From assembly GCA_035623955.1 (NCBI GenBank), contig DASPSM010000016.1, forward strand, positions 1-43,201: a stretch of DNA of 43,201 nucleotides. The letters run 5' to 3'. The notes beneath the pieces are model-generated. The model had not been told where the DNA came from. It ran no database searches and saw only the letters and a list, made by a program, of their open reading frames with translations. This document shows, piece after piece, positions 25,319-42,390 of the stretch. The position numbers and the translations under genes were made by a program. Source of the stretch: Planctomycetaceae bacterium. GTDB lineage: Bacteria; Planctomycetota; Planctomycetia; Planctomycetales; Planctomycetaceae. Each line of letters begins with the position of its first letter. The first letter of the stretch is position 1.

Positions 25319-25347
25319 CCCTCACCCCCTGCCCCTCTCCCGCAAGG
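25319..25347. repeat. GC-rich hairpin repeat, copy A left part (interrupted by the MITE)
   Basis: CCCTCACCCCCTGCCCCTCTCCCGCAAGG is 28/29 identical to the reverse complement of 25575-25603. Its right half GGAGAGGGG resumes after the MITE at about 25456. Confidence 0.6.
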
Positions 25348-25446: not shown

Positions 25447-25574
25447 CCCGCAAGGGGAGAGGGGAGAAGGATTGCGGGTGAAGCGGAGAGATTTTTCGCA
25501 CGAGTCCTTGACGATCTGCACCTAAACACAGTTTTGTGCAAAGGGGCAAATGCGAACGCTCTTCCCCCCTCTCC

Positions 25575-25603
25575 CCTTGCGGGAGAGGGGCTGGGGGTGA
25601 GGG
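25575..25603. repeat. GC-rich hairpin repeat, copy B (inverted relative to copy A)
   Basis: CCTTGCGGGAGAGGGGCTGGGGGTGAGGG, part of the intact hairpin CCCCTCTCCCCTTGCGGGAGAGGGG (25567-25591 region). Confidence 0.6.
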
Positions 25604-25654
25604 GTGTCTGCCCGCTGCACGATGCAGTCTTTTAGCATAGATCGGAGCAAGACG

Positions 25655-26815: not shown

Positions 26816-26861
26816 GGTTTGCGCTTTAGCAGCTGCGATGCGAGAGGGGAGGTCCGGATTC

Positions 26862-28532
26862 ATGCCATTTTCTAGTCTCTCCGACATGCATCGCAGCCAG
26901 TGCCAGCTGCTGGGCCCGCGAACCGCGATTCGATTCAAACGCGACGGCCTGTACCACGACGTCAGCTGGGCCGAGTACCGCTGGATGGCCGACCGCGCCG
27001 CCGCCGGCCTGATCGAGCTGGGGGTGAATCCGGGCGATCGCGTCGCCATTCTGTCCGAGAACCGATACGAGTGGTTGATTGCCGACGAGGCGATCCTTTC
27101 GACCGGCGGAGCCGATGTCCCCCTTCACGCTCCGCTGGCTCCGCGACAGGTCGAATACCAGGTCGGTCACAGCCAGTCGCGGGGCATTATCGTCAGCGGC
27201 CAACAGCAGGCCGACAAAGTCTTTCACGTGCTCGAGGCGCTGCCCAATCTCGAATTTCTGATCTCCTTCGATCCAGTCGTTTCGCCGATCGACAAAATCC
27301 GCGTGCTGTCGTGGAACGGGCTGATGCAGCGGGGCAGCCGCGCGCACAAGCAGGAAGAGATTCTTCGCCGTGAATCGAAAATCACCGGCAAAGACCTGGC
27401 GACCATCATTTACACCAGCGGCACGACGGGGAACCCCAAAGGTGTGATGCTCACGCACGGCAATCTGCTGGAAAACGCGAAGACGACGCTCGAAATCGGG
27501 CCCCGCGATCCAGCCGACGTCCTGCTGAGCTGGCTGCCGTACAGCCATATCTACGCACGCACTTGCGATCTGTACGTGCCGGCGATCGCAGGCTCGAGCG
27601 TGGCGCTGGCCGAGTCGATGGACACTTTGATCGTCAACCTTGCCGAGACCTGGCCGACCTGGCTGACTTCGGTCCCGCGGTTTTACGAAAAAGTGTGGGC
27701 GCGCGTCGAACAGATGCCGCCCGAGCAGCGTTCGACCACGCTCAAGAAGATTTTCGGTCCGCGAATTCGTCAGCTTTCGTCGGGCGGCGCTCCGCTGCCG
27801 AGGCACGTCTGCCAGGGCTTCTTTGACGCGGGGCTCCCGCTGTTGGAAGGCTACGGGCTCACCGAGACCTCGCCCGTCGTCAGCTTCAACAAGCTCGACG
27901 ATTACCGCATCGGGACCGTGGGCAAGGCGATTCCCGGCGTCGAAATCAAGATTGCGCCCGACGGCGAGATTCTCGTCCGCGGTTCGAACGTCATGCAGGG
28001 TTACTGGCGCAATCCCGAGGCGACGGCCGAGGTCATCGAAAAAGACGGGTGGTTCCACACCGGAGACGTGGGTCACCTCGATGACGAGGGTTATCTCACG
28101 ATCACGGACCGAAAGAAGGATCTGATCATTACGTCGGCCGGCAAGAACATCGCTCCCAGCGAGCTCGAGCGGCTGCTGGTCAGCGACATCTATATCGACC
28201 AGGCGGTGGTTTATGGCGACGGGCGGAGGTTCGTCAGCGCCCTGATCGTCCCGAATTTCGAGCAGCTCCGCGCGAAGGCCGCCGAACTCAATTGCAAGCT
28301 CGAGTCGTCGCCCGAAGGATTTTTGAAGACGCCATGTCTCAACGAGTTTTTCGCGCAGCGGATCGATGCGGTGATGCAAGAGGTCAGCAATCCCGAGCGG
28401 GTCAAGAAGTTTCTCGTTCTCGATCGCCCGTTTCAGCTCGACGCCGACGAGCTGACGGCGACCTTGAAAGTCCGACGCAACCACATCATTCGTAAGTTTG
28501 AGCACCAATTGGCTGCTCTCTACGATGACTAG
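26862..28532 (+). CDS. Long-chain-fatty-acid--CoA ligase (FadD/FAA-like AMP-binding enzyme)
   Basis: IIYTSGTTGNPKGVMLTHGN, EGYGLTETSP, GWFHTGDVGHLDDEGYLTITDRKKDLIITSAGKNIAP. GGGGAGG lies 9 nt before ATG 26862. ATG 26838 is an alternative start. Confidence 0.85.
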   Translation: MPFSSLSDMHRSQCQLLGPRTAIRFKRDGLYHDVSWAEYRWMADRAAAGLIELGVNPGDRVAILSENRYEWLIADEAILSTGGADVPLHAPLAPRQVEYQVGHSQSRGIIVSGQQQADKVFHVLEALPNLEFLISFDPVVSPIDKIRVLSWNGLMQRGSRAHKQEEILRRESKITGKDLATIIYTSGTTGNPKGVMLTHGNLLENAKTTLEIGPRDPADVLLSWLPYSHIYARTCDLYVPAIAGSSVALAESMDTLIVNLAETWPTWLTSVPRFYEKVWARVEQMPPEQRSTTLKKIFGPRIRQLSSGGAPLPRHVCQGFFDAGLPLLEGYGLTETSPVVSFNKLDDYRIGTVGKAIPGVEIKIAPDGEILVRGSNVMQGYWRNPEATAEVIEKDGWFHTGDVGHLDDEGYLTITDRKKDLIITSAGKNIAPSELERLLVSDIYIDQAVVYGDGRRFVSALIVPNFEQLRAKAAELNCKLESSPEGFLKTPCLNEFFAQRIDAVMQEVSNPERVKKFLVLDRPFQLDADELTATLKVRRNHIIRKFEHQLAALYDD

Positions 28533-28580
28533 CCCAGAGATAAGTAACCCCACCGGGGTCGACGATCACGACGGTCGCTG

Positions 28581-29729
28581 ATGGACAACGGCTTGAAAAA
28601 GCGGGTGGGGAACGCGGCGTTCACCTTCCGCGGGTACAACATTTCCAACTTGGGCAGGACGCCTGAGCTTCTGGCGCATCCCGCTTACGGGCCCGTCGTG
28701 CGTCGCCATCTCGACGACGCCTCGCGGATTTGCACGCGCGTCACCGGCCGCAAGGTCAATCTGCTCGGGCGGATCCATCGCAAGGCCAAGACGACGCTCA
28801 AAAGCTACGCTCAGGACATCTGCCTGATCGTCGCCGTCGAAATGGCCCAGCTGCAGATCCTGCACGACATGTACGACGTGTCGATTGCCGACGCCAAACT
28901 CGCGCTCGGTTACAGCTTGGGCGAGCTTGCGGCCCTCGTGGCCTGCGGCGTCTACACGATCGAGGCGGCGATCGGTCCGCTGGTGCAGCTGGCCGACGAG
29001 GCCTCGTCGCTGGCCAACGACGTCACCTTGGGAATCTTGTTTTCGCGAGGCCCCGCGCTCGGGCAGGAGAAAATCGCTCAGCTTTGCCTGCAGATCAGCA
29101 ACGAAGGCAATGGGACGATCGCCATCTCGACGATTCTCTCGCCCGATACGGTGCTTTTGATGGGTCAGGGGGATACGCTCGATCGGTTCAAAGAGCGGAT
29201 GGTGGGCGTTCTGCCCGAGACGACTCGCCTGCGCAAGAATCGCAACAAGTGGCCGCCGATCCACACGCCCATCACCTGGCAGAAGAACATTCCCAACCGG
29301 GCTTCGGTGCTGTTGGAGAAAGTCCCGGGAGGCTTCCGGGCCCCGGTTCCGCCGATCCTCTCCTGCGTGACGGGCGGATTCGACTACAACGACTACAACA
29401 GCCGCGACATGCTCAATCGCTGGGTCGATCATCCGCAGCTGGTCTGGGATGTCGTCGATAAAACTCTGGCGTCGGGCATCGAGACAATCATCCACGTCGG
29501 CCCCGAGCCGAACGTCTTCCCCGACACCTTTCGCCGCATCGCCCTCAACGTGGAAACGCAGCTCAATTCGCGCCCCTTCGCGCGGTTCGGCGTCCGCGCC
29601 ATGACGACGATCATCCGCCGCCGCAGCTGGCTGCAGCGGCTGATTTCGACCGACCCGGTTCTGTTGCGGGCTCCCTACATCGAGCAGATCACGCTCGAAG
29701 ATTGGCTGCTCGACCACAAGCCGGGGTAG
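28581..29729 (+). CDS. Divergent FabD-like acyltransferase (malonyl-CoA:ACP transacylase fold)
   Basis: Nucleophile-elbow motif LGYSLGELAALVACG (canonical FabD has GHSLGE). Candidate dyad His in KWPPIHTPITW (canonical FHS/FHT). Overall length fits the Acyl_transf_1 fold. Confidence 0.6.
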   Translation: MDNGLKKRVGNAAFTFRGYNISNLGRTPELLAHPAYGPVVRRHLDDASRICTRVTGRKVNLLGRIHRKAKTTLKSYAQDICLIVAVEMAQLQILHDMYDVSIADAKLALGYSLGELAALVACGVYTIEAAIGPLVQLADEASSLANDVTLGILFSRGPALGQEKIAQLCLQISNEGNGTIAISTILSPDTVLLMGQGDTLDRFKERMVGVLPETTRLRKNRNKWPPIHTPITWQKNIPNRASVLLEKVPGGFRAPVPPILSCVTGGFDYNDYNSRDMLNRWVDHPQLVWDVVDKTLASGIETIIHVGPEPNVFPDTFRRIALNVETQLNSRPFARFGVRAMTTIIRRRSWLQRLISTDPVLLRAPYIEQITLEDWLLDHKPG

Positions 29730-29819: not shown

Positions 29820-29848
29820 TTGACACCCAACTCGGGCAGTTCTAGCAT
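29820..29848 (+). promoter_or_regulatory. Candidate sigma70-like promoter for the 30.0-38.9 kb operon
   Basis: TTGACA (29820-29825), 17-nt spacer, TAGCAT (29843-29848). This would give a leader of about 165 nt before ATG 30021. Motif match only. Confidence 0.35.
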
Positions 29849-30020
29849 GGAAGAGAGGCGTTGCCACGTCGGCGCTGCCGGTCGCAACCCTCTTCGAGGC
29901 AGCAACTTACGACGGGCCATTTCCTCTCAGCCAATCCCTGGGAATCGCGCCGCCACTTTTGCGCCGCTGGTTTGTTTATTTATTGGTGAAAATCCGCGTT
30001 GAGAGCGGAATCGAGAATCC

Positions 30021-30971
30021 ATGTCTCTTGCCCAGGGCGGTAAAGCGAGGCTCGGCCGCGGCCACTTGGCCCCACCCGTCATTCGCGTCACCAACTACGA
30101 CCGCGTCTGGTCGATCCTAGTAGCCCTCTTGGCGGTGCTCGCCGTGTCGGTTTGGTTCTTGTTCCTGGTCTGGGACAGCTTTCGCCCGCACCACGCGGTG
30201 ATGCAGCAGGCGATCGAGGTCATCGAAGACACGAGCGGCGGCGTCGAGAACGGCTCTCCAACCGAATCTTTGAAGCTCGAGGGAACCGGCCCCGAGCGGG
30301 CCGACGCCACGCCGGGGGAAGCCTCTGACGAGAGCCGCCCGGAAGTCGAGCAGGTGCTGCAGAGCGTTTCGCTCGAGGCAGCCAGTGGCGACGCGACGGG
30401 AACCGTGATGGCCGGTTCCTCGGATCAGCTACAGCTCGATACGGCGCCCGTCGCCAGCCCGAAGGGGGGCTTCGCGCTCGGCACCGGAACCAGGCCGGCG
30501 CTCGGGGGAGGTCCCGGATCCAGAGGGGGTTGGCCGCGGCATCAGCGTTGGTACGTCTACTTCCCGGAAGAAGGCTCGCTGACGCAATACACCAGGCAGC
30601 TCGACTTTTTTGGGATCGAACTCGGCGCCCTGATGCCCGATCGAACGATGACCTATCTGTCGGACGTGTCGGCCGCCAAGCCGACCGTGCGGAATGCCGC
30701 ATCCGGCGAGGGAGAGAAACGCCTGTTCTTTACCTGGCAGGGGGGCAAGCGGCGACAGGCGGACATGCAGCTGTTTGCCAAGGCGGGAGTGCCCATCAAC
30801 CCCGACACGATCATCTTCCATTTCTATCCGCCGGCGACTGAAAATCTCCTGGCAGTCAGGGAGCGCGATTACGGCAATCGGCCCGTGCGCCAAATCCGCC
30901 GCACGTTCTTTACGGTGATCCCCGCCGCGGAAGGTTACGACTTTGAAGTCACCCGCCAGGTCTATTACTGA
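30021..30971 (+). CDS. Single-pass membrane protein of unknown function (316 aa)
   Basis: TM helix VWSILVALLAVLAVSVWFLFLVW, an acidic/Gly-rich linker, then a C-terminal globular region of about 140 aa (WYVYFPEEGSLTQYTRQLDFFGIELGALMP...). The stop lies 2 nt before the next ATG. Confidence 0.65.
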   Translation: MSLAQGGKARLGRGHLAPPVIRVTNYDRVWSILVALLAVLAVSVWFLFLVWDSFRPHHAVMQQAIEVIEDTSGGVENGSPTESLKLEGTGPERADATPGEASDESRPEVEQVLQSVSLEAASGDATGTVMAGSSDQLQLDTAPVASPKGGFALGTGTRPALGGGPGSRGGWPRHQRWYVYFPEEGSLTQYTRQLDFFGIELGALMPDRTMTYLSDVSAAKPTVRNAASGEGEKRLFFTWQGGKRRQADMQLFAKAGVPINPDTIIFHFYPPATENLLAVRERDYGNRPVRQIRRTFFTVIPAAEGYDFEVTRQVYY

Positions 30972-30973
30972 CG

Positions 30974-33900
30974 ATGAACGACCGCACGGCGATGCTCGAC
31001 TTGGAGGTTCGAAACGGCTCGCAGCCGGCCGAGACGCTGCGGATATCGCGCAAGCAGCCGATTTGCATCGGCCGGCACGCCTCCAACGATATTTGCATCG
31101 ACGATGCGGCTGTGGCCCCGATCCACTGCCGAGTCGCCTGGAACGGGGCGGAATTCGAGGTCGCCTCGGCCAACCGCGACGGAGTCGACGTCAACGGCAC
31201 GATGGTGCGGCACAGTGCGCTGAAGGCGGGCGATGTCATGCGGATTGGGCCGGCCGATCTCCTCGTCCATCAGGCACCACCCTCAACCGAGTCTGACGCC
31301 CCGGCGCCCGGATGGGAGCAAGACGACTCGCTCCCCTACCTTCCGGATCCAAAATCGTCTTCCGAGATGCCTCCCTTTGCGTCTGGGGAGGTGCCGCTGC
31401 GTCCCGTGACCGAAGAGGGCCTGCCCGCGCAGGAAGGGTGGAATCGAGGAGCCTTCCGCCCAAATGCCTGGTCAGGGATGGCTGAGCGGTTGCAGCAGGC
31501 GGAAGCGCTCAAACAAGGGCCGTCGCAAGCGCCGACCGCTCCGCCAACGCCCGCGACGACCAGCGACACCATCGGTGCCATTCTCAAGGAGCAAGAGGCT
31601 GCCGAGAGCGACGAGCCCGTGGCCCTGCTGCCTCGACCCAAGCCGCTCAGTGCCCGCTTGTCCGAGCGGCTGGCCGCTCAAAAAATGCGACCCGGCGAAC
31701 AAGAGGCCCTGCGGTCGCCTCTCATTCTGGGAATGCTCGGCGTCACGCTGGCGCTGGGACTGGCGGCAGCGGCAATTTATTTCGTCATCGGCCGCGAGTC
31801 GACCCAGCAAGAATACGACGCCGCAACCGCCGAATTTGCCGCCAAACAATACGGCCAGGCCGCGGAGATGTTCGAGAGGTTCATCGCCCGGCACAGCGGG
31901 CACCAACTGACGGCTGATGCCCAATATCAGATGTGGAACGCCCGCATTCTCAAAGAGATCAGCGGGGGGACGCCGGCCTGGAAGCTGGGGCTCGAAAAAG
32001 TCGAGCAATCGATCGACGCCAACCGCGATCGCAAGGACTTTCACGAGCACGACGCCGACCTGATCAATTTTCTGACGCAAATTGCGCTGGGCGCCTCCGC
32101 GTCGGCACAAAGCGCTGCCGATCGCAGCCTGCTCGACGTCTCGTCGGCGGCCGAAGCCATGCTCCCGCGCTATTTCCCCGACGGAAAACTTCCAGCCGAG
32201 CTGTCGGAGAAGCTGCGTTCGGCCTTCACCACCGCGGAGGAGGCGATCATCAAGCACGACGTGGTCACGGCCGGCGTGAAGGAGATCGAAAAGGAGAACT
32301 CTGCGCGGCGACCGATGGCCGCGCTCGCCGCGCGCCGAAATCTATTGGCTCGTTATCCCGACGTCGCCGCGGATGCCCGGCTGGGCAAATTGCTGACAGA
32401 GACCCTCGGCGTCGAAAAGGCCTTTGTCGTTCGCGAGGAGCTCAAGAAGCCGGCTCTGGCGCGGCAAGCGCATCCGGCCCCGCGGCCGCTGACCCTCACG
32501 ATGCATACCCGCACGCGCACGGAAGAACCTGCCGGCATAAGGCCTGTGTTTGTGCTGGCCAAGGACTGCTGTTACGCAGTCGATCATGTCACGGGCGAGC
32601 CGATTTGGCGGCGCGTGGTTGGTTTGGACACTCCGTTCTTCCCGGTCAAGGTCGAAACGTCGGTCGAGGGATTGTTGGTCTTTAACTCCAATCGGCTGTC
32701 GTTAATGCTCCTCGATCGAAAAACCGGGGCGGTCGTCTGGGAACAACCGCTCGACGAGGCCGTGTCCGGACCGCCGCTGGTCGATCAGGGACAGATTTAT
32801 CTGGCGACCTTGGGCCGGCATCTCTACAAGATCGACCTCGAAAGCGGCCGCATCACGACGCGGCTCACGTTCTCGCAAAAGATTCTTTCGCCGCCGGCTC
32901 TGACCCGGAACAAGGAGCGGCTGATCGTGGCGGGCGACGCGTCGCTGATCTACACGCTGACGACGTCGCCGCTGGAGTGTCTCCGCGTCGACGACATGGG
33001 GCACGCCGCCGGCTCGCTCGTCAACGGCGCGACGGCGGTCGGCGGGTTGGTGCTGTTGACCGAACCGGGACGAGGCTCGGGCACGCGGCTGCGCGTTTTC
33101 GACGCACAAAGCGACGAGACCTGGCTCAAGCAAGTCGACGTGCAGACGGTGGAAGGCCAGGTGCGCGACGCTCCGGTGATTCATGGAAAGATCCTGTTTG
33201 TCGCGTCGGACCCAGCACGGATTTCGGCGTTTGCCGTGTCGGACACACCGGGGCAGGAATCCCTGACGCCAACCACCAGCCTGGCGATTCCCAACCAGGA
33301 AGAGAGTCGGATTTATCTCTCGCCCGGTCCCGACGGGCAGCTGTGGATGGCCGGCAGCTCGGTCCGGCAGCTGCAGCTGAAGCTCAACTCACAGACATTC
33401 TCCCTCAACCCCGCGGAAATCGCCGTCGGGATCAGCTCGCAGCCGTTACAAGTCGTAGGGCAATATCTTTATGCCGCTCGGAAGCTGCCATTTGCTTCGA
33501 GCGTTTTCTTTTCCGAGATCGACCGCGAGCCGATGACGGGCCAATGGCGCACGGTGTTCGGTTCTTCACTAATCGCGGCCAGCGTTTTCCCAAGCGGCGA
33601 GATTGTCACCGTCGGCGAGGCGGGCGACGTCTTTGCGGTCGAACCGCGTGAGCTGGATGCGGGCGGCTTCAAGTCGTCGGCTACTTCCGTCATCGAGCCA
33701 GACCCGAAAACCGCAACTCCCCTGCGAGCCACTCGGCTGCATGACGGTAAGATCGCCGTCGATTGTTCCGGGCCGAATCCGAATCTGTGGCTCGTCGGTC
33801 TTGGTGGACAGCTTTCGGGCACTATCAAGCTCAATAAGCCGCTCGAGGCGCCACCGATCGAGATCAATGCCGGCCTCGTGCTCCCGTTGCCGGGTCGGCT

Positions 33901-34588
33901 GCGCCTGGTGAGTCCGACAAGCGGCGTGCCTGCGGCCGAGGAATATCTGGCGCCGGTCGAAAAGGGGCGGTCGGCCCGCTGGAAATCGGTGGAGCGCGTC
34001 TCGGAAAAAGATCTGGTGGCACTCGACAGCAGCGGACGGTTGTCGCTCTTCCAGTACCGGACCGACCCGGACCGCAATCTGGCCGCGGTCGTCTCGAAGC
34101 AACTGGAAGGACCCTGCGACTCCGGACTCGCCGTCGTCGCCGGCCGCGTCGCGTATGTCGATGGCGACGGCGTGCTGCACTTTCTCGACGTGGCAACACT
34201 CGAGCCGGTTGCCAGGCACAAACTGCCCGATCTCGCGGTGGGGCGTCTGTGGACCATCGACTCGCTGCTCCTGGTCGAAACGAGGGATCATGAGCTGGCT
34301 GCCTTCGACGGGAGTGGTCCCACCCGGTCGCTGTTCGTGACCTCGCTGAAAGACACTGGCCCTTCCGGGCGTCCCGCATTGATCCAAAATCGGCTCATCG
34401 TCGCCAATCGCGACGGCACCGTCGTCAGCATCGATCCGGCTCACGGGACGGTTGTTGCTCAAGTCGCGCTGGAGCACCCCCTTTCGGGCGGCGTGCTTGC
34501 CGTCGAGGGCCGCGTCGTCGTCTCCACGATTGACGGCAGCTTGTGCCGAGTCGATTCGTTGCTCGAGCGGCCAAGGAAGGCACCATGA
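30974..34588 (+). CDS. FHA domain - TM - TPR-like - PQQ/BamB-like beta-propeller protein (1204 aa)
   Basis: N-terminal FHA pattern ICIGRHASNDICIDDAAVAPIHCRVAW...VDVNGTMVRHSALKAGDVMRIGPADLLV. TM SPLILGMLGVTLALGLAAAAIYFVIG (about nt 31715-31792). Repeated propeller-like strands (YAVDHVTGEPIWRR, LLDRKTGAVVWEQPL, IYLATLGRHLYKIDLESGR, VVSIDPAHGTVVAQV). Confidence 0.8.
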   Translation: MNDRTAMLDLEVRNGSQPAETLRISRKQPICIGRHASNDICIDDAAVAPIHCRVAWNGAEFEVASANRDGVDVNGTMVRHSALKAGDVMRIGPADLLVHQAPPSTESDAPAPGWEQDDSLPYLPDPKSSSEMPPFASGEVPLRPVTEEGLPAQEGWNRGAFRPNAWSGMAERLQQAEALKQGPSQAPTAPPTPATTSDTIGAILKEQEAAESDEPVALLPRPKPLSARLSERLAAQKMRPGEQEALRSPLILGMLGVTLALGLAAAAIYFVIGRESTQQEYDAATAEFAAKQYGQAAEMFERFIARHSGHQLTADAQYQMWNARILKEISGGTPAWKLGLEKVEQSIDANRDRKDFHEHDADLINFLTQIALGASASAQSAADRSLLDVSSAAEAMLPRYFPDGKLPAELSEKLRSAFTTAEEAIIKHDVVTAGVKEIEKENSARRPMAALAARRNLLARYPDVAADARLGKLLTETLGVEKAFVVREELKKPALARQAHPAPRPLTLTMHTRTRTEEPAGIRPVFVLAKDCCYAVDHVTGEPIWRRVVGLDTPFFPVKVETSVEGLLVFNSNRLSLMLLDRKTGAVVWEQPLDEAVSGPPLVDQGQIYLATLGRHLYKIDLESGRITTRLTFSQKILSPPALTRNKERLIVAGDASLIYTLTTSPLECLRVDDMGHAAGSLVNGATAVGGLVLLTEPGRGSGTRLRVFDAQSDETWLKQVDVQTVEGQVRDAPVIHGKILFVASDPARISAFAVSDTPGQESLTPTTSLAIPNQEESRIYLSPGPDGQLWMAGSSVRQLQLKLNSQTFSLNPAEIAVGISSQPLQVVGQYLYAARKLPFASSVFFSEIDREPMTGQWRTVFGSSLIAASVFPSGEIVTVGEAGDVFAVEPRELDAGGFKSSATSVIEPDPKTATPLRATRLHDGKIAVDCSGPNPNLWLVGLGGQLSGTIKLNKPLEAPPIEINAGLVLPLPGRLRLVSPTSGVPAAEEYLAPVEKGRSARWKSVERVSEKDLVALDSSGRLSLFQYRTDPDRNLAAVVSKQLEGPCDSGLAVVAGRVAYVDGDGVLHFLDVATLEPVARHKLPDLAVGRLWTIDSLLLVETRDHELAAFDGSGPTRSLFVTSLKDTGPSGRPALIQNRLIVANRDGTVVSIDPAHGTVVAQVALEHPLSGGVLAVEGRVVVSTIDGSLCRVDSLLERPRKAP

Positions 34589-37263
34589 AGCGCGCGATGG
34601 GCTCGAACAGTGTTTGCTCTGTCTTGCGCCGGTTTGCGCGGGTCGCAGCGATCCCGAGTGTTGGCCTGTTCGTGTTGCTGGGGCTGCTGCTCGGGCCGGC
34701 GAGCGCGTTCCAGGGGCCAGGCATTCCCGGTCAACGCCAGAAGGCTCCGCGCGCCGCCAAAAAAAGCAAAGAGCCGCCGTCAAAACCCTCTCAGAAAGAC
34801 AAGAAGGAGAAGAGCGAGACGGAAGACGACGACACGAAGGGCACCGACTCAAAAGAGAAAAAGGACTCTGGCGAATCCAAACGACTGAAGGACATCAAGA
34901 GCCAGCAGAAACTCCCGAAGCTCGCGGATCTTCCGATCCCCTCCGTCGCCGAGCTGAATCAGCAACCGGTCGATTGGTTGGTGCTCGACAGCAATAACAA
35001 GGCCAACCCCGACGTCCTGATCGCCAAGCCGGTGTTTCCCCGTCCCGACACGTTGAAAAAGCTGGCCGACGCGCTCGATGAGCTGAAAAGGAGGCCGCGG
35101 CCGACCACTCCCGATGAGCGAGAGAAGCTGGAGATTCAAAAGGCTGACGTGCAAAAGATCCTCGTCACGCTTCCGGAGGATGCATCGGGTCAGATCTACG
35201 AAATCCCCACGGAGAAGGTCGACCGGATCATCTATCACGAGGATCTCACCATCCGCCGGGCAACCTTGCTTGCCGAAGAGAAGAAATTCCGCGACGCGCT
35301 CGAATTGCTCTATCCACTCCAGCGAACCGTGCCCAAGTGGAAAGGACTGGAGGACGAGTCGCGGCGGATGTTGATGAGCGAGGCCGAATCGACTCTTCAC
35401 GGTGGCGATTTTCAGACGGGTTTGATGTCGCTGATGGAGCTCCACGCGCGCGACCGCAACTATCCCGGGCTGCAAACTCAGCTTGGCCGGGTGACCGACA
35501 AGCTGATTGAAACCGCCCGGCAATCTCATGACGACCGGGAAGCCCGTCACTACGTCGCCCAGTTGGCGCGACTCGAGCCCGAGCACGAGACGGTTGAAAA
35601 ATGGAAGCGAGCACTGAACGCCGAGGCGCAGGACCTGATGGCCTCCGCCCTCGACGCAGCTCGCAACGGGCGCTACGCCGAAGCGGTCGACGCGATCGAT
35701 CGAGCGGCTCGCGTCTGGCCCAAGGCGGTCGGCCTGGCGGAGGCGCATCGCAAAATCTGCGAGCGGTACCAGCGGCTCTCGGTCGGGGCCATGACCCTGG
35801 CCGGCGGTGGCGCCGGGCTGCCAGTCCCGACGCTTGCCGATCAGCGCGCCACGCGACTGGAGCAGTTTGACTTGTTCGAGGTCGATCGGATCGACGACAC
35901 CACACATTACCGCAGCCGACTTTTGGAACAGTGGGAGCCGACCGACTTGGGGCGTCGCGCGTTCTTTACGCTGCGCCGGAGCTCCGCGCGCTGGGAGTCG
36001 CGGCCCAGCTTGAATGCCGTTTCGGTCATGTCCACAATGCGGGCGCTGATCGATCGTTCGAGTCCCGCTTTCGACGAACGCTTCGCCAGCTACGTCGATG
36101 GAATCGAGCTCCGCTCGCCGCTGGAGCTGGAGGTGCGTTTTTCCCGCGCGCCGCCGCGGATGGAGCCGCTGTTTTGTTTTCCGATTTCGGCTCCTGGCGG
36201 CGCGGGGACGAACTTCGATCGGCAGTCGGGACTTGGGCCCGTCTTATCGCGGCGCTTCGAGTGCGCCGAGCGGTCTCCCGACAGGTCCCGGTTTCGCCGG
36301 CTGTTTCCCCAACCGGATGGATTGGATCAGTACCAGCTCGCCGAGATCGACGAGCGCCGCTACGATTCGCCGCAGCGCGAGATTCAAGCGCTCTTGCGGG
36401 GTGATGTCTCGATGCTGCTCGACCTCCCGCCGTGGGCAATCAGCCCACTGCGCAAAGACACTCGCTTTTTCGTGCTCGACTACGCGATCCCCACGACCCA
36501 CGTTTTGCAGCTGAATCCCAACAGTCAGCCGCTCAAGAGCCGCGAGCTGCGGCTCGCACTTTCCTACGCCATCGACGCGCAGCGGATCCTCTCGCGACAG
36601 ATTCTGCACGCTGCCGATTCCACTGCCGGGCGACTCAGCACGGCTCCGTTCGCGACGACCAGCTACGCCTACAACGGCCTCTTGCCGCGGCGCGAGTTCA
36701 GCGCCAGCATGGCGTTCAGCCTGAACGCGGTCGCACTCAAGAGGCTGCAAGAGATTCCGCCGCTGCGCCTGGTTTGCGAAAACGATCCCCAGGCCCGATC
36801 CGCTGCCGCCGAAATCATCGCGCAATGGAAGCGTGTGGGGATCGTCGCTCAGCTCGTATCGCCCGAGCCGCAGTCGGGCTCCGGGCAAGCCGCTCAAAGT
36901 CCGCTCGAGTGGGACATTGCCTATCGCAAGCTGAGGATGGAGGAGCCGGTGACCCAGCTTTGGCCATTTATTACGGTCAATTCCGGGGCGCGCTTGGAGA
37001 GCGTGCGCGCTTTCCCCGACTGGCTGAGAATGGAGCTGCTCGATCTGGATAACGCTCCCGATTGGAAATCGGCCGTGAGCCGGTTACAGACCTTGCACGC
37101 GCATCTTTATTCCGAAGTCGCGTACATACCTCTGTGGGAGGTCGACGACGCGATCCTGCTGCGAAAAAACGTGCGCGATTTTCCCGCTTACAAGTTCGTC
37201 AACCCGTACCAGGACGTCGAACGGTGGATCGTGCAATCCTGGTTTCCGGAGGACGAACCGTGA
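34585..37263 (+). CDS. Secreted protein: Lys/Glu/Asp-rich region + TPR-like helices + family-5 solute-binding-protein (SBP_bac_5)-like domain
   Basis: The ATG at 34585 overlaps the upstream stop (ATGA). Signal peptide VAAIPSVGLFVLLGLLLGPASAFQ. The SBP5-like pattern is LLEQWEPTDLGRRAFFTLRRSSARWESRPSLNAVSV...VDGIELRSPLELEVRF...LQLNPNSQPLKSRELRLALSYAIDAQRIL. ORF-track start 34543 rejected. Confidence 0.7.
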   Translation: MKRAMGSNSVCSVLRRFARVAAIPSVGLFVLLGLLLGPASAFQGPGIPGQRQKAPRAAKKSKEPPSKPSQKDKKEKSETEDDDTKGTDSKEKKDSGESKRLKDIKSQQKLPKLADLPIPSVAELNQQPVDWLVLDSNNKANPDVLIAKPVFPRPDTLKKLADALDELKRRPRPTTPDEREKLEIQKADVQKILVTLPEDASGQIYEIPTEKVDRIIYHEDLTIRRATLLAEEKKFRDALELLYPLQRTVPKWKGLEDESRRMLMSEAESTLHGGDFQTGLMSLMELHARDRNYPGLQTQLGRVTDKLIETARQSHDDREARHYVAQLARLEPEHETVEKWKRALNAEAQDLMASALDAARNGRYAEAVDAIDRAARVWPKAVGLAEAHRKICERYQRLSVGAMTLAGGGAGLPVPTLADQRATRLEQFDLFEVDRIDDTTHYRSRLLEQWEPTDLGRRAFFTLRRSSARWESRPSLNAVSVMSTMRALIDRSSPAFDERFASYVDGIELRSPLELEVRFSRAPPRMEPLFCFPISAPGGAGTNFDRQSGLGPVLSRRFECAERSPDRSRFRRLFPQPDGLDQYQLAEIDERRYDSPQREIQALLRGDVSMLLDLPPWAISPLRKDTRFFVLDYAIPTTHVLQLNPNSQPLKSRELRLALSYAIDAQRILSRQILHAADSTAGRLSTAPFATTSYAYNGLLPRREFSASMAFSLNAVALKRLQEIPPLRLVCENDPQARSAAAEIIAQWKRVGIVAQLVSPEPQSGSGQAAQSPLEWDIAYRKLRMEEPVTQLWPFITVNSGARLESVRAFPDWLRMELLDLDNAPDWKSAVSRLQTLHAHLYSEVAYIPLWEVDDAILLRKNVRDFPAYKFVNPYQDVERWIVQSWFPEDEP

Positions 37264-38945
37264 GAGTGGGCCCCACTTTCGCGATCCTTGGGCTGATCAT
37301 CGCCGCTCCGGTGCCCTCTCGAGGAGCGAGCGACGCGGCGCCGCTGGGTCGCGTCGATTATTTGCCTTATCAGGTCTCGGTCTCGGTCGCTTTCTCGCGC
37401 GATACCGAGATCACCGAGACCTTTCGACGGACGGTCTGCTCGACGCTGCGAACGCGCCTCGAACAGACATTCGGGGCGACCTGGATTTTTCCTCCGGGAG
37501 CGGACGTCGTCCCAAACGACCGCCTGGTCCCGCCGAACGAATCGGGCCTGGAGCGGCTGACTCACTCCGTCGCGGCCGAGCAGTTCGCTGGCTTCGCTTG
37601 CGACAAGGCCTACTTCCTGACGGTCAGTCGCCGCGGACCGAAATGGTTCGTTAGCGGGCGCGAATGGGACGGAACTCTGCGATCGCTGGGCCCGCCGGCC
37701 TCGGAAACGACGACGGATCGCGGAAGCGTTGCGGACGCCGCTCTCGCCGTCATTACACGGATTTTCTCGCCGCTATTGATCGTAGACGATGCGGATCGCG
37801 ACTCGAAATCGGCCGTCCTGACCATTCGCGCGGGATCGATTCCCTATGGCGATCCGAAATTCCAGCCGCTCAAAGCCGGGGACATTCTGCAGCCCGTCTT
37901 TCGTTTCCTCGACTCGAAGCACGCCGTCCGCAGCATCCAGTCCGTTCCCTGGACCTATCTGGTGCTGGGCCCGGACCCAAAAAATGGTCGCAGCCAGGTG
38001 CGGGCATCGGTCGTCAGTTCGTATCGCGCTCCGCTGGCGGCCAACATGCGGCGTCGGGTCGAAGCGATCGCCGTGAGAGTGCGCCCAGAGTTTCCCGCGA
38101 CGCGTCTCACGCTCGTTGCCGGAAAAGATCCACCACAGCCGCAAGCCGGGCTGTTCGTAACCGTAAGCGAGCTTGCGCCCGGAACCGCCGGCGGCAAGTC
38201 GTCAGCCAGGCCGGCGGCCGACTCACCCAGGCCGGCCGAGGCCGCCGGGAGTCGGCTCCTGAGCGATCGCTACGGAGAAGTCACCATCCCCGTCGACCCA
38301 CAGCAGCCGATCGTAAGACTGGAGGTGCACAGCGGAGGCGCGATCCTGGCGCGGCGGCCTTTCATGCCGGGTCTCGAACCAGATGTGACGCTGCAGGTGG
38401 CCGACGACCGCGTGCGGCTGGGCGCCGAGCGAGAGGTCGACATTCTCGAAAGCCAGTTGATCGAGACCGTGGCGAGGCGCGGCGCGCTGATGGCGCGAAC
38501 CCGGGCCGCCATCAAGCGCACGGACGTCAGTAGCGCGCAGAAACTGCTGGCGGAGGTCGACCGCCTCCCCCCGGCCGACGAATACCTCGGGCAGCTCAAC
38601 AAGATCCGCGTCCTGGCACTCGAAGAGGCACACAACCGCAAGGACCGAGTGTCCGAACGCCGGATCGAGGACCTGTGCCAGAAGACGCTCGACCGCATCA
38701 CGCAATACCTGTCGGACGACCGCGTGGCGACGTTCAAAGAGGAAGTCGCACAGTTGTTGAACGCCAAAAAGGTCGAGACCCAGCAACTGCAAGCGCCGAT
38801 GCACCGTGACGAGAACGCTGCGCCGCGCGAAGCGAGCGCTCAGCCGGCGGCGAACGCACCGCTTCGTCGGCGCTCTCCAGACGAGCTGAAGCCGCCTGCC
38901 AAGAAGGAACCGGCGAATCGCCCCACGGGGGCAGCGGGAATTTAG
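37260..38945 (+). CDS. Secreted protein of unknown function with C-terminal coiled-coil and Pro/Lys-rich tail
   Basis: The GTG at 37260 overlaps the upstream stop (GTGA at 37260-37263). Signal peptide-like RVGPTFAILGLIIAAPVPSRGA. Heptad-like helical region REVDILESQLIETVARRGALMART...EEVAQLLNAKKVETQQLQ. ORF-track start 37062 would lie inside the upstream gene. Confidence 0.6.
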   Translation: MRVGPTFAILGLIIAAPVPSRGASDAAPLGRVDYLPYQVSVSVAFSRDTEITETFRRTVCSTLRTRLEQTFGATWIFPPGADVVPNDRLVPPNESGLERLTHSVAAEQFAGFACDKAYFLTVSRRGPKWFVSGREWDGTLRSLGPPASETTTDRGSVADAALAVITRIFSPLLIVDDADRDSKSAVLTIRAGSIPYGDPKFQPLKAGDILQPVFRFLDSKHAVRSIQSVPWTYLVLGPDPKNGRSQVRASVVSSYRAPLAANMRRRVEAIAVRVRPEFPATRLTLVAGKDPPQPQAGLFVTVSELAPGTAGGKSSARPAADSPRPAEAAGSRLLSDRYGEVTIPVDPQQPIVRLEVHSGGAILARRPFMPGLEPDVTLQVADDRVRLGAEREVDILESQLIETVARRGALMARTRAAIKRTDVSSAQKLLAEVDRLPPADEYLGQLNKIRVLALEEAHNRKDRVSERRIEDLCQKTLDRITQYLSDDRVATFKEEVAQLLNAKKVETQQLQAPMHRDENAAPREASAQPAANAPLRRRSPDELKPPAKKEPANRPTGAAGI

Positions 38946-38983: not shown

Positions 38984-39796
38984 TCAAAGCACTTCCCGCG
39001 GCGGACGTTCGAGCGGCCGGCGGCGAGTGACCGAGTGCCTCAATTCACGGAAGACGAGCCCGGGAAGGGCCAGGCCGTCGCGGAAGTAACGGCCGGAGAG
39101 CCTCCGAGGCTCAAGCGCGACGCGGTGCACCCATTCCAAGCCGGACCGACGCATCCAACGCGGCGCGCGGTGCTGCTCGCCGGCCAGAAAATCGATCGTT
39201 GCGCCGACGCACAGGGCAATCTTCGCACGAATGCGGTCCCGGTGTTGGTGGACCCACAGCTCCTGCTTGGGGGCCCCGAGCCCCACGATCAGTACGTCGG
39301 GCTCCGCGGCTGCGATCTGCGCGAGAATCCGCGAGTTCTCGGCTTCGTCCTCCTCAAAGCCGGGCGGTGGACTGTCTCCGCCCACCACGCGAATCCCTGG
39401 CCAGCGCTCTTGGACGACCTTGACGGCCCGCCGGTTCACCTCGGGTCGCGCTCCCAGCAAGTACACGCGAACAGGCGCGTCCGCCCGGGCCCGTTCGAAG
39501 AGCTGTGGGACCAGGTCGCTGCCGGCCACACGTTCCGGCACGCCCCGTCCGAGCATCCTCGCAATCAGCACGATCGGCATGCCGTCGGCAAGCACAAAAT
39601 CGGCCTCGGCGTAGACGCGCGCGAATTGAGCGTGCCGCTGCAGGAGCACGGCGTGATTCACGTTGGGCGTGACCACGTACCGGCAACGGCCAGGGCCGGG
39701 CGAAGCGATCCATTCGCACAGTTCGTCGACCGCCTCGGTCATCCGGCAGGGGTGCAGGTTGATTCCGAAGAGCTCAACCGGCTCGGGAATCGCCAT
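38984..39796 (-). CDS. WecG/TagA/CpsF family (GT26) glycosyltransferase
   Basis: VVTPNVNHAVLL, VLADGMPIV, VAGSDLVPQL, VYLLGARPEV, LIVGLGAPKQELW are characteristic of Glyco_tran_WecG. Confidence 0.85.
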   Translation of the reverse strand: MAIPEPVELFGINLHPCRMTEAVDELCEWIASPGPGRCRYVVTPNVNHAVLLQRHAQFARVYAEADFVLADGMPIVLIARMLGRGVPERVAGSDLVPQLFERARADAPVRVYLLGARPEVNRRAVKVVQERWPGIRVVGGDSPPPGFEEDEAENSRILAQIAAAEPDVLIVGLGAPKQELWVHQHRDRIRAKIALCVGATIDFLAGEQHRAPRWMRRSGLEWVHRVALEPRRLSGRYFRDGLALPGLVFRELRHSVTRRRPLERPPREVL

Positions 39797-40030
39797 GCAG
39801 AATTTCCCGTGCCTTTCGCCCGCGTCTTTTCACTCGGTCACCGGCCCGCTAAACTCGGCAAGATTATTTAAGCGACGCAGAGTTTGCAAGCTGTGATGAA
39901 AGACGACGCAAGGTTCCTGGCGTCGACGCGCGAGATTTCCGCCGTGGTTCTTGACGACCTGCCCAGCGGGCCAACCGCTGTCGGAGTTCCCGCTCGGATC
40001 GTCTATTCCAGCTGACGGATCACCCGGTCG

Positions 40031-41296
40031 ATGCGCGTCGCCTATTTGGTCAATCAGTACCCCAAAGTCAGCCACGCTTTCATTCGACGCGAGATTCGCG
40101 CGCTCGAAAAGCTGGGCGTTTCGGTCGAGCGGATTTCTCTGCGCAAAACCCTCGAACAGCTCGTCGATCCGGAAGATCGGCTCGAATGCGAGCGGACTTA
40201 TGTCGTTCTCTCACGCGGCGCCGCCGGCTTGCTGATCGCACTTGTCGGCGGACTCGTCACGCGCCCAGCTGCGTTTCTGCGGGCGGCGCGAGTGGCGGTC
40301 CGGCTTGCCCGGCGCGCTTCGCAGCCTTGGAAGCACCTGGCCTATTTGGCCGAGGCGTGCGCTTTGGCGATCAAGTATCGGGCGATGCCGCCCGAACACA
40401 TCCACGCCCATTTCGGGACCAATTCCGCCGCGGTTGCGCTGTTGTGGAGCACGCTTGCAGGAATCCCCTTCAGTTTTACCGTCCACGGGCCCGAGGAATT
40501 CGATCGACCCGAGAGTCTGGGGCTCGACATCAAGATTGCCCAGGCGCGATTCGTCGTCGCCGTCAGTTATTTCGGTCGCAGTCAGTTGATGCGCTGGTGC
40601 CCGGCCGACCAGTGGGAGAAGCTGCACGTCATCCACTGTGGAGTCGACGACAGCTTTCTCGACCCAATCCAGGCCTCGCCCGTGCCCGACGTTGCCCGTC
40701 TGGTCTGTGTTGGACGCCTGTGCGAGCAAAAAGGGCACGGAGTCCTGATCGAGGCCGCTGCAAGACTCGCCGAAGATGGAGAGCCGTTTGACCTGGTGCT
40801 CGTGGGAGACGGGCCACTGCGGGCCGAGATCGAAAAGCTGGTGCAGCAGCGCGGGCTACGCGGCGTGCGGATCACCGGTTGGAAAAGCGGTCTCGAAGTG
40901 ACTCGGGAGATTCTGGCCGCGCGCGCGTTCGTGCTGCCGAGTTTCGCGGAAGGCTTGCCCGTTGTGATCATGGAAGCGTTGGCGTTGCAGCGCCCTGTGA
41001 TTTCCACCTACGTTGCGGGCATTCCAGAGCTCGTCACGCCAGGCGTCTGCGGGTGGCTGGTGCCAGCGGGAAGCGTTGATGACCTGTGCGAGGCGATTCG
41101 CGCAGCACTCCATACGCCCACCGAGCGACTCGAAGCAATGGGGGAAATGGGGGCTTTACGGGTTCGGCAGCATCACGCTGCTTTGATCGAAGCTGAAAAA
41201 CTCAGCAAGCTGCTTTTCGGGGCCGCGAGCGTCGCGACGATTTCAAAGACGGAATCGCGCCGGGCGTTGCACATCAGTTCAAAAAGTTCACCGTAA
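40031..41296 (+). CDS. GT4-family (GT-B) glycosyltransferase, WcaL/exopolysaccharide type
   Basis: N-terminus MRVAYLVNQYPKVSHAFIRREIRALEKLG. C-terminal domain LVCVGRLCEQKGH...LVGDGPLR...FVLPSFAEGLPVVIMEALALQRPVIST (E-x7-E region). Confidence 0.85.
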   Translation: MRVAYLVNQYPKVSHAFIRREIRALEKLGVSVERISLRKTLEQLVDPEDRLECERTYVVLSRGAAGLLIALVGGLVTRPAAFLRAARVAVRLARRASQPWKHLAYLAEACALAIKYRAMPPEHIHAHFGTNSAAVALLWSTLAGIPFSFTVHGPEEFDRPESLGLDIKIAQARFVVAVSYFGRSQLMRWCPADQWEKLHVIHCGVDDSFLDPIQASPVPDVARLVCVGRLCEQKGHGVLIEAAARLAEDGEPFDLVLVGDGPLRAEIEKLVQQRGLRGVRITGWKSGLEVTREILAARAFVLPSFAEGLPVVIMEALALQRPVISTYVAGIPELVTPGVCGWLVPAGSVDDLCEAIRAALHTPTERLEAMGEMGALRVRQHHAALIEAEKLSKLLFGAASVATISKTESRRALHISSKSSP

Positions 41297-41330
41297 TCTG
41301 CGACCTTGCACTTCTGACGCCGTCGTTGCT

Positions 41331-41378
41331 CTCGTCGAGCGAGACCGCAAGCTTACCCTCGGTCGCTGACTCGACGAG
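41331..41378 (+). terminator. Imperfect long hairpin downstream of the GT4 gene (terminator-like, no U-tract)
   Basis: CTCGTCGAG (41331-41339) pairs with CTCGACGAG (41370-41378). Inner GACCG/CGGTC pairing. Located 35 nt after the stop at 41296. Confidence 0.3.
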
Positions 41379-41673
41379 TGCCGCGCCGCCCAATGGGATC
41401 CGCGAAGCATTGATCCCTGTGGACCCGCATGCGGTCTCTGGCAGGTCGCCCGCAATTGACCTGTAACAGTCAGAATCTTGGCTGACGAAACGGTTCGCGG
41501 GACGGATCGAAGTGGCTAGCGCCCGCAGCGCCGGAGTATTACGGAATCTCAACCAACTGCACAGTCTTCGTAACAAGAAGATTTTGCCCAGAGGGAATTG
41601 ACAGCCATCCTGAAACCTGTAGGATGGCGCACAGCTTACGGGCCAGGATGCCGTGCCATTCGAGGGAGTGGAC

Positions 41674-42390
41674 ATGCCAAAAGTTCTGCGATGGATCGTC
41701 CCCGGTCTTGCGATCAGCTGCCTGGTCGTGAGCCCCTCAGCCGTCGAAGCGGGCTTCATCGCCTCGACGACCGGCGCGATCGACGTCATCTCCCCGCCCG
41801 CGTCAGCACTCCCAGGGAAACTGGTTTCCAACGACTATCAAGCGTGGGACGAATCGACGGGAAAGCTTTCCTCACCTCTTCAGGTCGACATGCTGGGCCA
41901 GCCTGGCTCTTACGACGGGTTATCCAGGTTCACAGCACTTTCCGGGACGCTCGCCGCCGGGACGAAATACGACTCGGTCATGGTCCAGTTGGATCCGAAG
42001 ACGACGTTTCCCGCCCAGAGCCCGATCGCCTCGATCACTTTCACCGGCAAAATCATCGGTTTGGCGCTGTTTGGGCCGTCGCTCGACGCCAGCGACATTT
42101 ATGGAAGCCCAACAACGGTGTATCCGCACGGTCTGCCGGGGATCGGCACACAGGGGCGCGGGATTAATCGAACGCACGAAAATCGCTTTTCGATCACGAA
42201 CAATGGCCTGACGCTCAACTTGCAGCTGACGGCGGGCTTTGGCGGGTTTGAGGAGATGCGGATTTTCTGCGCGCCGGCCGTGGCCAGCGTTCCCGAACCG
42301 TTTTCGCTGGCGATCTGGTCCGGAGTTGGGCTCGTTCTGGTCCTTAAGAGGAGGTCGCTGACCAGGAGCAAGACGCCTGTCCTCCCGTGA
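41674..42390 (+). CDS. PEP-CTERM sorting-domain secreted protein
   Basis: Signal peptide MPKVLRWIVPGLAISCLVVSPSAVEA. C-terminal VPEPFSLAIWSGVGLVLVLKRR (PEP motif + TM + basic cluster). GGGAG lies 5 nt before ATG 41674. ORF-track start 41653 is GTG. Confidence 0.8.
   Translation: MPKVLRWIVPGLAISCLVVSPSAVEAGFIASTTGAIDVISPPASALPGKLVSNDYQAWDESTGKLSSPLQVDMLGQPGSYDGLSRFTALSGTLAAGTKYDSVMVQLDPKTTFPAQSPIASITFTGKIIGLALFGPSLDASDIYGSPTTVYPHGLPGIGTQGRGINRTHENRFSITNNGLTLNLQLTAGFGGFEEMRIFCAPAVASVPEPFSLAIWSGVGLVLVLKRRSLTRSKTPVLP

Follow-up and report, generated by a model that had tools for sequence, protein, structure and literature searches.

A four-gene cluster of a Planctomycetaceae bacterium as candidate non-motor components of a TolQR/ExbBD-type envelope system

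Bacteria of the Planctomycetes-Verrucomicrobia-Chlamydiae (PVC) group have recently been proposed to encode non-TonB 'force transducers', composed of a transmembrane (TM) helix, a disordered linker and a globular vWA domain, beside tolQ and two heterologous tolR genes (PMC12204202). Planctomycetes have unusual envelopes, their energy-dependent import of macromolecules follows an unknown route and their division does not involve FtsZ, and the players are largely unidentified (PMC12673574). The present study concerns four adjacent genes, designated g1 to g4, in a stretch of 43,201 nucleotides (nt) from a Planctomycetaceae bacterium (GenBank assembly GCA_035623955.1, contig DASPSM010000016.1, positions 1 to 43,201 of the forward strand), referred to below as the window. 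An initial annotation, made from the sequence alone, had inferred from their products an envelope-spanning complex that connects periplasmic ligand or substrate binding with cytoplasmic Ser/Thr-phosphorylation signalling, or else a scaffold for envelope assembly. The comparison with relatives showed that g1-g4 belong to a unit of eight genes that is shared by the two orders sampled, Planctomycetales and Pirellulales. Defining features of Tol-Pal, Ton, the beta-barrel assembly machinery (BAM), Agl-Glt and ATP-binding cassette (ABC) importers were each looked for and not found in this unit, which is thus placed outside these systems and grouped with the envelope systems associated with a TolQR/ExbBD motor; two of its protein families are without annotation. 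Profile searches with Pfam, NCBIfam and PADLOC assigned the set to no characterised pathway, in agreement with the initial annotation, and literature searches for a planctomycete ExbBD/FHA/propeller system returned nothing specific and no paper describing the cluster.

The four genes and their predicted products are as follows.

30021-30971, + strand: g1, open reading frame (ORF) of 316 amino acids (aa); single-pass membrane protein with a short cytoplasmic N-terminus, a TM helix, a disordered linker and a globular C-domain (AlphaFold2, hydropathy)
30974-34588, + strand: g2, ORF of 1204 aa; cytoplasmic FHA-fold domain, low-complexity linker, TM helix, periplasmic helical region and two BamB/PQQ-type beta-propeller regions (Pfam, NCBIfam, hydropathy)
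34585-37263, + strand: g3, 892 aa counted from ATG; signal-peptide protein with a Lys/Glu/Asp-rich stretch, a helical region and an SBP_bac_5 fold (Pfam, hydropathy, composition)
37260-38945, + strand: g4, 561 aa counted from GTG; secreted protein with a TolB-N/FlgT-like alpha/beta domain and beta-sandwiches, a helical bundle/coiled coil and a disordered Lys/Pro-rich tail (AlphaFold2, Foldseek)

The tight packing described in the initial annotation was confirmed by the ORFs and by readout of the junctions, which are TGA-CG-ATG between g1 and g2 (a 2-nt gap), an ATGA overlap at 34585-34588 between g2 and g3 and a GTGA overlap at 37260-37263 between g3 and g4; a fixed stoichiometry of the products is only inferred from the gene overlaps. 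All four genes showed the codon-position GC pattern typical of real genes at high GC (window GC 63%). PADLOC models matched none of the four proteins, and an anti-phage defence system was rejected on this result.

Approximately 35 loci, belonging to Planctomycetaceae, Pirellulales and Thermoguttaceae, shared the gene order; the genome scan for loci used two narrow peptide patterns, and the 28 loci it found are an undercount of the distribution. Wherever the contig allowed, g2, g3 and g4 were adjacent and in the same order, g1 lay upstream in most loci, and 4-nt overlaps at g2/g3 or g3/g4 recurred in relatives; the four genes thus form a conserved functional unit, in support of the initial annotation. 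In the clade of the window itself, in which g2 shares 54% identity or more along the segment that aligns best, the order was g1-g2-g3-g4 (11 distinct loci). Most other loci, including those of Gimesia, Schlesneria, Planctomicrobium and further metagenome-assembled genomes (MAGs), had the order (MazG)-HEAT/prenyltransferase-like-g1-TolQ/ExbB-ExbD-ExbD-g2-g3-g4. Altogether, in approximately 21 loci outside the window clade, TolQ/ExbB, two or three ExbD/TolR genes and the gene for the HEAT/prenyltransferase-like protein, which is secreted, were embedded in the cluster, among them the following.

L034, Bremerella cremea: HEAT-g1-ExbB-ExbD-ExbD-PQQ-SBP5-496 aa
L036, Thermoguttaceae MAG: HEAT-ExbB-ExbD-ExbD-g1-PQQ-SBP5-507 aa
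L037, Stieleria varia: three ExbD genes within the cluster
L038: same order as the other motor-type loci, with a kinase domain in g2

The exceptions to the motor-type order were loci on truncated contigs as well as L028 and L035. In L028 (Planctomicrobium sp. SH661), the 10 kb upstream of g2-g3-g4 contain neither g1 nor motor genes, although the genome has a g1 homolog (P0200); in L035 (Anatilimnocola sp. NA78), the HEAT-g1 pair alone was kept together. One window-type locus, L003/L030 (contig_25728, MFD04463.bin.2.44), had frameshifts in all four genes and, because every gene is affected, these probably reflect long-read assembly error rather than pseudogenisation.

Because motor genes are embedded in the same cluster in the approximately 21 loci, g1-g4 are regarded as part of a proton-motor-associated system, and the idea of a free-standing four-protein complex was not borne out. 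The ExbD proteins of relatives carry the canonical TM motif with Asp (LDITPMIDV...), and the best family models of the motor proteins were tolQ and tolR, with scores far below the equivalog cut-offs. In Planctomycetaceae, the second ExbD of the cluster (211-431 aa; e.g. L001 12130-13413) carries a CxxC...CPxC zinc ribbon at its N-terminus, with an acidic linker ahead of the TM helix. This zinc ribbon, which is cytoplasmic, may be a partner of the g2 FHA domain. In relatives with the motor cluster, g1 lies directly beside the motor genes or one gene away. Within the 43-kb window, neither tblastn with ExbB, ExbD and HEAT2 of Gimesia nor Pfam scans of the window ORFs detected MotA_ExbB (PF01618), ExbD (PF02472) or the HEAT gene of the cluster, and the presence of motor genes elsewhere in the window was thus rejected. 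The motor and HEAT genes are no longer in the cluster in the window clade, having been either lost or relocated.

We consider it somewhat probable that g1-g4 are the non-motor components of an envelope system of the TolQR/ExbBD type that is present in the class Planctomycetia and has not been described so far, because the gene order is conserved with motor genes embedded, g1 has a three-part layout, g2 and g4 match propellers and TolB-N, kinase modules are swapped in, the g1 of the window clade keeps the motifs of its family and the promoter is conserved. A bolder version, which we offer as tentative and rather doubtful, is that the HEAT-like protein, g1, TolQ, two unlike TolR proteins and g2-g4 form an unrecognised proton-powered trans-envelope machine specific to Planctomycetia, with g1 as a new class of transducer with a new periplasmic fold and with a kinase/FHA input or output.

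For g1-g4 as non-motor components, the following scheme may be drawn. The inner-membrane TolQ/ExbB-ExbD motor would convert proton flow into mechanical work, and g1, by analogy with the construction of TonB and TolA, may act as a force transducer or motor-coupled adaptor. The g2 protein would be a periplasmic scaffold anchored in the inner membrane, with a BamD/CpoB-like TPR region and two BamB-like propellers, and its cytoplasmic end may be a lineage-specific regulatory module, namely FHA in Planctomycetaceae and a Ser/Thr kinase or a small helical domain elsewhere. The g3 protein may serve as a periplasmic ligand-binding or sensing module of the peptide-binding solute-binding protein (SBP) family 5 rather than as an ABC component, and g4, according to its structural model, may be a periplasmic TolB-N/FlgT-like scaffold. 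In the window clade, the products of g1-g4 presumably use a motor encoded elsewhere or are independent of a motor. Candidate processes would be envelope tethering or maintenance, energised uptake, and signalling from the envelope to the cytoplasm.

The single-pass membrane topology assigned to g1 in the initial annotation was confirmed by one hydrophobic segment (residues 26-55, hydropathy). The AlphaFold2 model, built with 40 homologs, places the TM helix at residues 25-53, disorder at approximately 60-170 and a confident alpha/beta C-domain at 172-316 (pLDDT 85-95), and the linker of approximately 115 disordered residues contains two motifs strongly conserved in the alignment, ELPGGxEDGSPDETLRVDSPE and GTGRRALGxGPGxGGxPREQRW. 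The family's conserved TM and linker motifs are retained in the g1 of the window clade. Of the two proteins that the initial annotation had left without a family, g1 and g4, neither matched a Pfam or NCBIfam family, TonB_C included in the case of g1. The C-domain fold of g1 had no match by Foldseek in the PDB (best E 0.15) or in BFVD (best E 0.03), and the g1 sequence profile had none in the PDB, so that TonB-C, TolA-C or any known fold was rejected as detectable in this domain. In a search of the g1 profile against 1.84 billion representatives, the family comprised 1385 clusters (50% identity) at E <= 1e-3, of which 322 reached E <= 1e-30, and almost all are approximately 300 aa long. Its closest homologs are all 'hypothetical' proteins of Planctomycetaceae, and its remote members come from Pirellulales and Thermoguttaceae. 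The pre-TM sequence 'VTxYDxV' of g1 resembles 'ITPxIDV' of ExbD, and an ExbD/TolR-like subunit was therefore weighed as well and rejected, since hhalign against the ExbD of the cluster gave a probability of 0.1.

The layout of g1, with TM helix, linker and globular domain, is that of the vWA force transducers of PVC bacteria (PMC12204202), and both settings have one TolQ-like gene and two unlike TolR-like genes, with the TM-linker-globular protein beside the motor; this adjacency holds for the relatives and not for the window. However, the globular domain of g1 is not a vWA domain and has no known fold, the His of the reported SHLS motif was absent from the g1 TM helix in the alignments, and the partner genes are others (g2, g3, g4 and HEAT). 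In the Ton system, similarly, ExbB/ExbD-family motor genes find their counterpart in the relatives, where such genes adjoin a TonB-like three-part protein, whereas TonB_C (PF03544) was not detected in g1-g4 nor a TonB-dependent receptor in the gene tables of the cluster, which contain large periplasmic scaffolds instead.

The predicted combination of FHA, single TM helix and large propeller in g2 was confirmed by Pfam and hydropathy. The FHA domain (PF00498) spans residues 31-92 (nt 31064-31249; E 1.6e-9; 38.5 bits versus a cut-off of 20.7), and its profile matches in the PDB are the FHA domains of Rv1747, GarA and TB39.8. The sole hydrophobic segment is the TM helix at residues 245-274 (nt 31706-31795), and residues 263-325, in a periplasmic helical region, have weak similarity to YbgF/BamD-type TPR models of NCBIfam. 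The propeller regions span residues approximately 525-1200, with PQQ_2/BamB at 534-754 and a second propeller (Pfam, E 4.8e-23). In PDB profile searches they hit BamB as well as PQQ propellers from membrane kinases (7eq5, 7dxn), and the AfsK model of NCBIfam also gave a match.

In FHA domains such as Rad53 FHA1, the conserved residues of the phosphothreonine pocket are the Arg of GR, the Ser and His of SxxH and the Asn of NG. The initial annotation had read the SxxH position of g2 as APIH, and the sequence is indeed VAPIHCR, with Ser replaced by Ala. In an alignment of 29 g2 orthologs, the Ser position was occupied by A, G, N, D, E or P, with S in none of them, the His of SxxH was Gln in Gimesia, the Arg of GR was kept in the window clade and was S in Gimesia and K or A elsewhere, and the Asn of NG was an invariant Asp. 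Because the pocket residues are not conserved, the FHA of g2, which keeps the fold of the family, lacks the canonical phosphothreonine pocket and is unlikely to be a classical phosphothreonine reader; this function, proposed in the initial annotation, was accordingly abandoned. Furthermore, the g2 orthologs of Pirellulales are without FHA and have a helical N-terminal motif of approximately 65 residues in its place, and the g2 proteins of Bremerella, Stieleria and Thermoguttaceae have neither FHA nor kinase.

The link to Ser/Thr-phosphorylation signalling that had been proposed for the four genes stood in one respect, namely the swaps of kinase domains, and failed in another, the FHA pocket being degenerate and the domain absent from Pirellulales. 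In L038, the g2 ortholog has a Hanks-type Pkinase domain where Planctomycetaceae have FHA, and in L039 a kinase-g1 fusion (P0236, 652 aa) occupies the g1 slot between HEAT2 and ExbB. Because kinase modules are swapped in or fused at these ends, the cytoplasmic ends of g1 and g2 are regarded as variable regulatory sockets. These swaps also bear on another explanation, that the cluster encodes a receptor-type Ser/Thr signalling module in which the g2 propellers and g3 sense a ligand and signal through the cytoplasmic ends of g2 and g1 to a Hanks-type kinase pathway, the motor being accessory. Besides L038 and L039, this explanation would account for the fusion of the g1 C-domain to BlaR1-type M56 sensor-transducers, for the kinase gene that flanks the Bremerella cluster and for the propellers, given that bacterial kinases are known to have PQQ propellers as ectodomains (AfsK model; 7eq5, 7dxn). 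We nevertheless regard it as unlikely: the kinase-fusion form is rare (2 of the best 150 g1 representatives, P0236 itself and P0241 via its cluster mate P0347), the FHA lacks the phosphothreonine-binding Ser in all aligned orthologs and the Arg in Gimesia, three of the lineages named above have g2 proteins with neither domain, and motor genes are far more constant partners of g1-g4 than any kinase.

The Agl-Glt system of Myxococcus (AglRQS motor and GltG) also combines a TolQR-type motor, a single-pass inner-membrane protein with a cytoplasmic FHA and TPR-rich periplasmic proteins. However, g2 scored 22 bits against the GltG equivalog NF033760 (cut-off 650), in the FHA region only, and the cluster has neither genes for the Glt outer-membrane barrels nor a TonB-C domain. 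Gliding is not known in these bacteria.

In g3, the SBP_bac_5 domain (PF00496) covers residues 444-771 (nt 35914-36897; E 1e-17; 64.8 bits versus a cut-off of 32.4). The make-up proposed in the initial annotation stood as far as the signal-like hydrophobic segment at the N-terminus, the charged stretch and the SBP_bac_5 fold are concerned, whereas the TPR-like helices remained sub-threshold in Pfam (E 0.08-0.3). The charged stretch at residues 50-113 contains 18 K and 13 D/E among 64 residues and is locally AT-rich as described (GC 0.54 versus 0.62 gene-wide). No ABC permease or ATPase genes were found by Pfam among the scanned ORFs of the window or beside g3 orthologs in any locus examined, so that the orphan state noted for the window extends to the relatives, and g3 is an orphan binding module. 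An ordinary SBP of a peptide/nickel ABC importer encoded elsewhere, with functionally unrelated neighbours, would share with g3 the domain that is common to OppA, DppA, HbpA, NikA and MppA, and the nearest solved relatives by sequence are HbpA (3tpa, E 4e-5) and the OppA-type OppAIV, each covering part of the domain. Such an importer component is nevertheless very improbable here, as g3 keeps its fixed slot between g2 and g4 in every locus examined, often with overlapping codons and never beside a permease or ATPase gene, has a helical N-terminal extension of approximately 400 residues that is not seen in transport SBPs and scores negligibly with the named SBP equivalogs of NCBIfam.

FlgT is a periplasmic ring scaffold that helps to recruit a MotAB-family stator, and the chain that best matches g4 in structure is a putative FlgT. 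The initial annotation had described g4 as a secreted coiled-coil protein; its N-terminus has a signal-like segment by hydropathy, as this description requires, but in the AlphaFold2 model (pLDDT 83.5, pTM 0.73) residues 37-380 are globular, with alpha/beta structure and beta-sandwiches, and the helical bundle/coiled coil is limited to 384-511. The best Foldseek matches were chain 8z5n_0, from the LPHT ring of Vibrio (E 3.6e-7, prob 1.0), and TolB (7mx5, E 8e-5), followed by weaker matches to LpoB, GNA1162 and CsgG. There is, however, no similarity to FlgT in sequence, and g4 carries an extra C-terminal helical bundle and the Lys/Pro tail and has no flagellar genes nearby. By sequence, g4 gave only chance coiled-coil matches in the PDB, and these were rejected as relatives. 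In the ortholog alignment, the disordered Lys/Pro/Ala-rich tail (38793-38945) was highly variable in length and nearly always ended in [ST/A/P]-G-[IL], with a conserved Gly-Ile/Leu. This conserved hydrophobic end could serve in docking or in recognition by a protease.

A gene run with the annotation order of the cluster is present in the supplementary tables of a TraDIS (sequencing of transposon insertion sites) study of Planctopirus limnophila (PMC10632474).

Plim_1696: MotA/TolQ/ExbB
Plim_1697: ExbD
Plim_1698: ExbD
Plim_1699: hypothetical, under COG1520 (bamB)
Plim_1700: SBP family 5
Plim_1701: hypothetical

These genes are probable orthologs of the cluster, judging by annotation and order only. 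All six are non-essential, with insertion indices of 0.087-0.119, whereas bamA is essential in P. limnophila (PMC10632474). An essential AAA_3 ATPase gene (Plim_1689-1690) lies six genes from the probable cluster (PMC10632474), and a MoxR-type AAA_3 ATPase, a DUF58 protein and a 1540-aa PQQ-repeat protein are encoded a few kb from the Bremerella cluster (L034 864-6698, minus strand); the proximity of AAA_3 to the cluster in Bremerella and P. limnophila could be a loose linkage or a coincidence.

The same data bear on an accessory role in outer-membrane biogenesis or tethering, in which the BamB-like propellers, the BamD/CpoB-like TPR and the TolB-N-like protein would be BAM-associated or Tol-Pal-like factors. 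This role would fit the matches of g2 to BamB models and structures and, weakly, to BamD/YbgF models, the Foldseek match of g4 to TolB, the best scores of the motor proteins with the tolQ and tolR models and the divergent adjacency of bamA to the cluster in the Thermoguttaceae locus L036. However, the BamB, BamD, TolQ and TolR scores are all far below the equivalog cut-offs, and bamA adjoins the cluster in one lineage only. BamB is an outer-membrane lipoprotein of approximately 390 aa, whereas g2 has 1204 aa, is anchored in the inner membrane by an internal TM helix, has no lipobox and reached 83 bits with the BamB model TIGR03300 (cut-off 285). With no Pal/OmpA-like gene in the cluster, and with the probable P. 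limnophila orthologs dispensable where bamA is not, we judge this role quite unlikely.

Tol-Pal itself is alike in that the relatives of the window have a TolQ-like channel and TolR-like subunits in one operon-like cluster, together with a g1 that is TolA-like in having a TM helix, a linker and a globular domain, propeller or TolB-N-like modules in g2 and g4 and CpoB-like TPR elements. It differs from the present unit in several respects. A gene for a Pal/OmpA-like lipoprotein was found in none of the gene tables of the cluster, the g2 propellers are of the PQQ/BamB type and are fused to an inner-membrane anchor, and the C-domain of g1 is unrelated to TolA domain III, its TM helix being without SHLS/His. 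Furthermore, the two TolR paralogs are unlike each other (one with the zinc ribbon), SBP family 5 and HEAT/prenyltransferase-like proteins are encoded in addition, the motor genes are absent from the window, and the structural match of g4 to TolB is partial (E 8e-5, TMq 0.15).

Several points weigh against g1-g4 being the non-motor part of a TolQR/ExbBD-type system. The window has no ExbB or ExbD gene, and the link of this locus to the motor is by homology only; the conserved set includes no outer-membrane partner such as a TonB-dependent receptor or a Pal-like lipoprotein; and g1 has neither the SHLS/His motif of TonB and TolA nor detectable similarity to TonB-C, TolA-C or ExbD. For g4, the structural matches have low TM-scores (0.15-0.26), which is usual when a model has several domains, and the 8Z5N entry contains FlgH, FlgI, FlgT, FlgP, MotX and MotY, so that 8z5n_0 is a putative FlgT, assigned from its chain length (352) and the TolB match and not read from the entry. 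Finally, the non-essentiality of the probable P. limnophila orthologs suggests no core growth function under laboratory conditions (PMC10632474).

Two further features lie upstream of g1.

29820-29848, + strand: promoter-like -35/-10 pair TTGACA-17 nt-TAGCAT (motif scan, 10/12 matches; conservation)
29855-30020, + strand: probable 5' leader of approximately 166 nt with conserved blocks and a small hairpin (alignments of relatives)

The pair put forward in the initial annotation is the sole sigma-70-like match in 11 kb and is unremarkable by chance alone (1 found versus 1.1 expected). Both hexamers (GCACGTTGACA and CTAGCAT) are nevertheless invariant islands, spaced 17-18 nt apart, in six close relatives with otherwise poorly alignable upstream regions, and in L022, a more distant locus, the motif is found again approximately 170 nt upstream of g1. 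Because the hexamers are invariant amid divergent flanks and recur in L022, TTGACA-17-TAGCAT is a probable promoter with a leader of approximately 166 nt. In the leader, the blocks CCGCCACTTTTG and TTGTTTATTTATTGG are conserved, and UCCGC (29993-29997) pairs with GCGGA (30005-30009) around a variable loop, approximately 10 nt before the ATG, the stem being kept in five of six sequences. No compensatory changes were found in this stem, RNAalifold of the leader returned conserved blocks without convincing covariation, and an Rfam scan of the window had no match; an RNA element in the g1 leader was rejected on these results, and the case for a structured leader RNA is weak. The AAATCCGC unit is repeated three times in the leader of locus L006 (L006 7643-7836).

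The remainder of the window contains a fatty-acid beta-oxidation set upstream and glycosyltransferases downstream of g1-g4. The beta-oxidation run (18313-29729, + strand), directly upstream, comprises two acyl-CoA dehydrogenases, an APH-family kinase, a FadB-like enoyl-CoA hydratase/3-hydroxyacyl-CoA dehydrogenase, a thiolase and an acyl-CoA ligase, and after it comes an ORF of 382 aa (28581-29729) that matched no Pfam family and contains a GYSLGE motif reminiscent of acyltransferases. Downstream, a 245-aa secreted protein (41653-42390, + strand) with no Pfam match has the C-terminal end ...VPEPFSLAIWSGVGLVLVLKRRS, a lookalike of the PEP-CTERM sorting signal. Because this protein adjoins WecG-family and GT4 glycosyltransferase genes (38984-39796, minus strand; 40031-41296, plus strand), the region 38984-42390 suggests an exopolysaccharide/PEP-CTERM locus. 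The minus strand encodes a YTV-repeat protein with a planctomycete-typical repeat (10429-11841) and a 963-aa HEAT_2 repeat protein (14316-17207), which is not homologous to the HEAT/prenyltransferase-like gene of the cluster (no match by tblastn; Pfam).

In the relatives, the cluster joins four or five proteins, two of them without a recognised family, to a proton motor of the TolQR type. If g1-g4 are components of a motor-associated envelope system, the system would extend the known partners of 5:2 motors beyond TonB, TolA and MotB, and it would bring into view the g1 family of approximately 1,400 clusters (50% identity) without annotation. The cluster is a concrete candidate for planctomycete envelope functions and, since the probable P. 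limnophila orthologs are non-essential, a genetically tractable one. A trans-envelope machine of this kind, if it exists, could underlie planctomycete-specific envelope behaviour, for instance the energy-dependent uptake by which macromolecules enter the enlarged periplasm, or budding without FtsZ.

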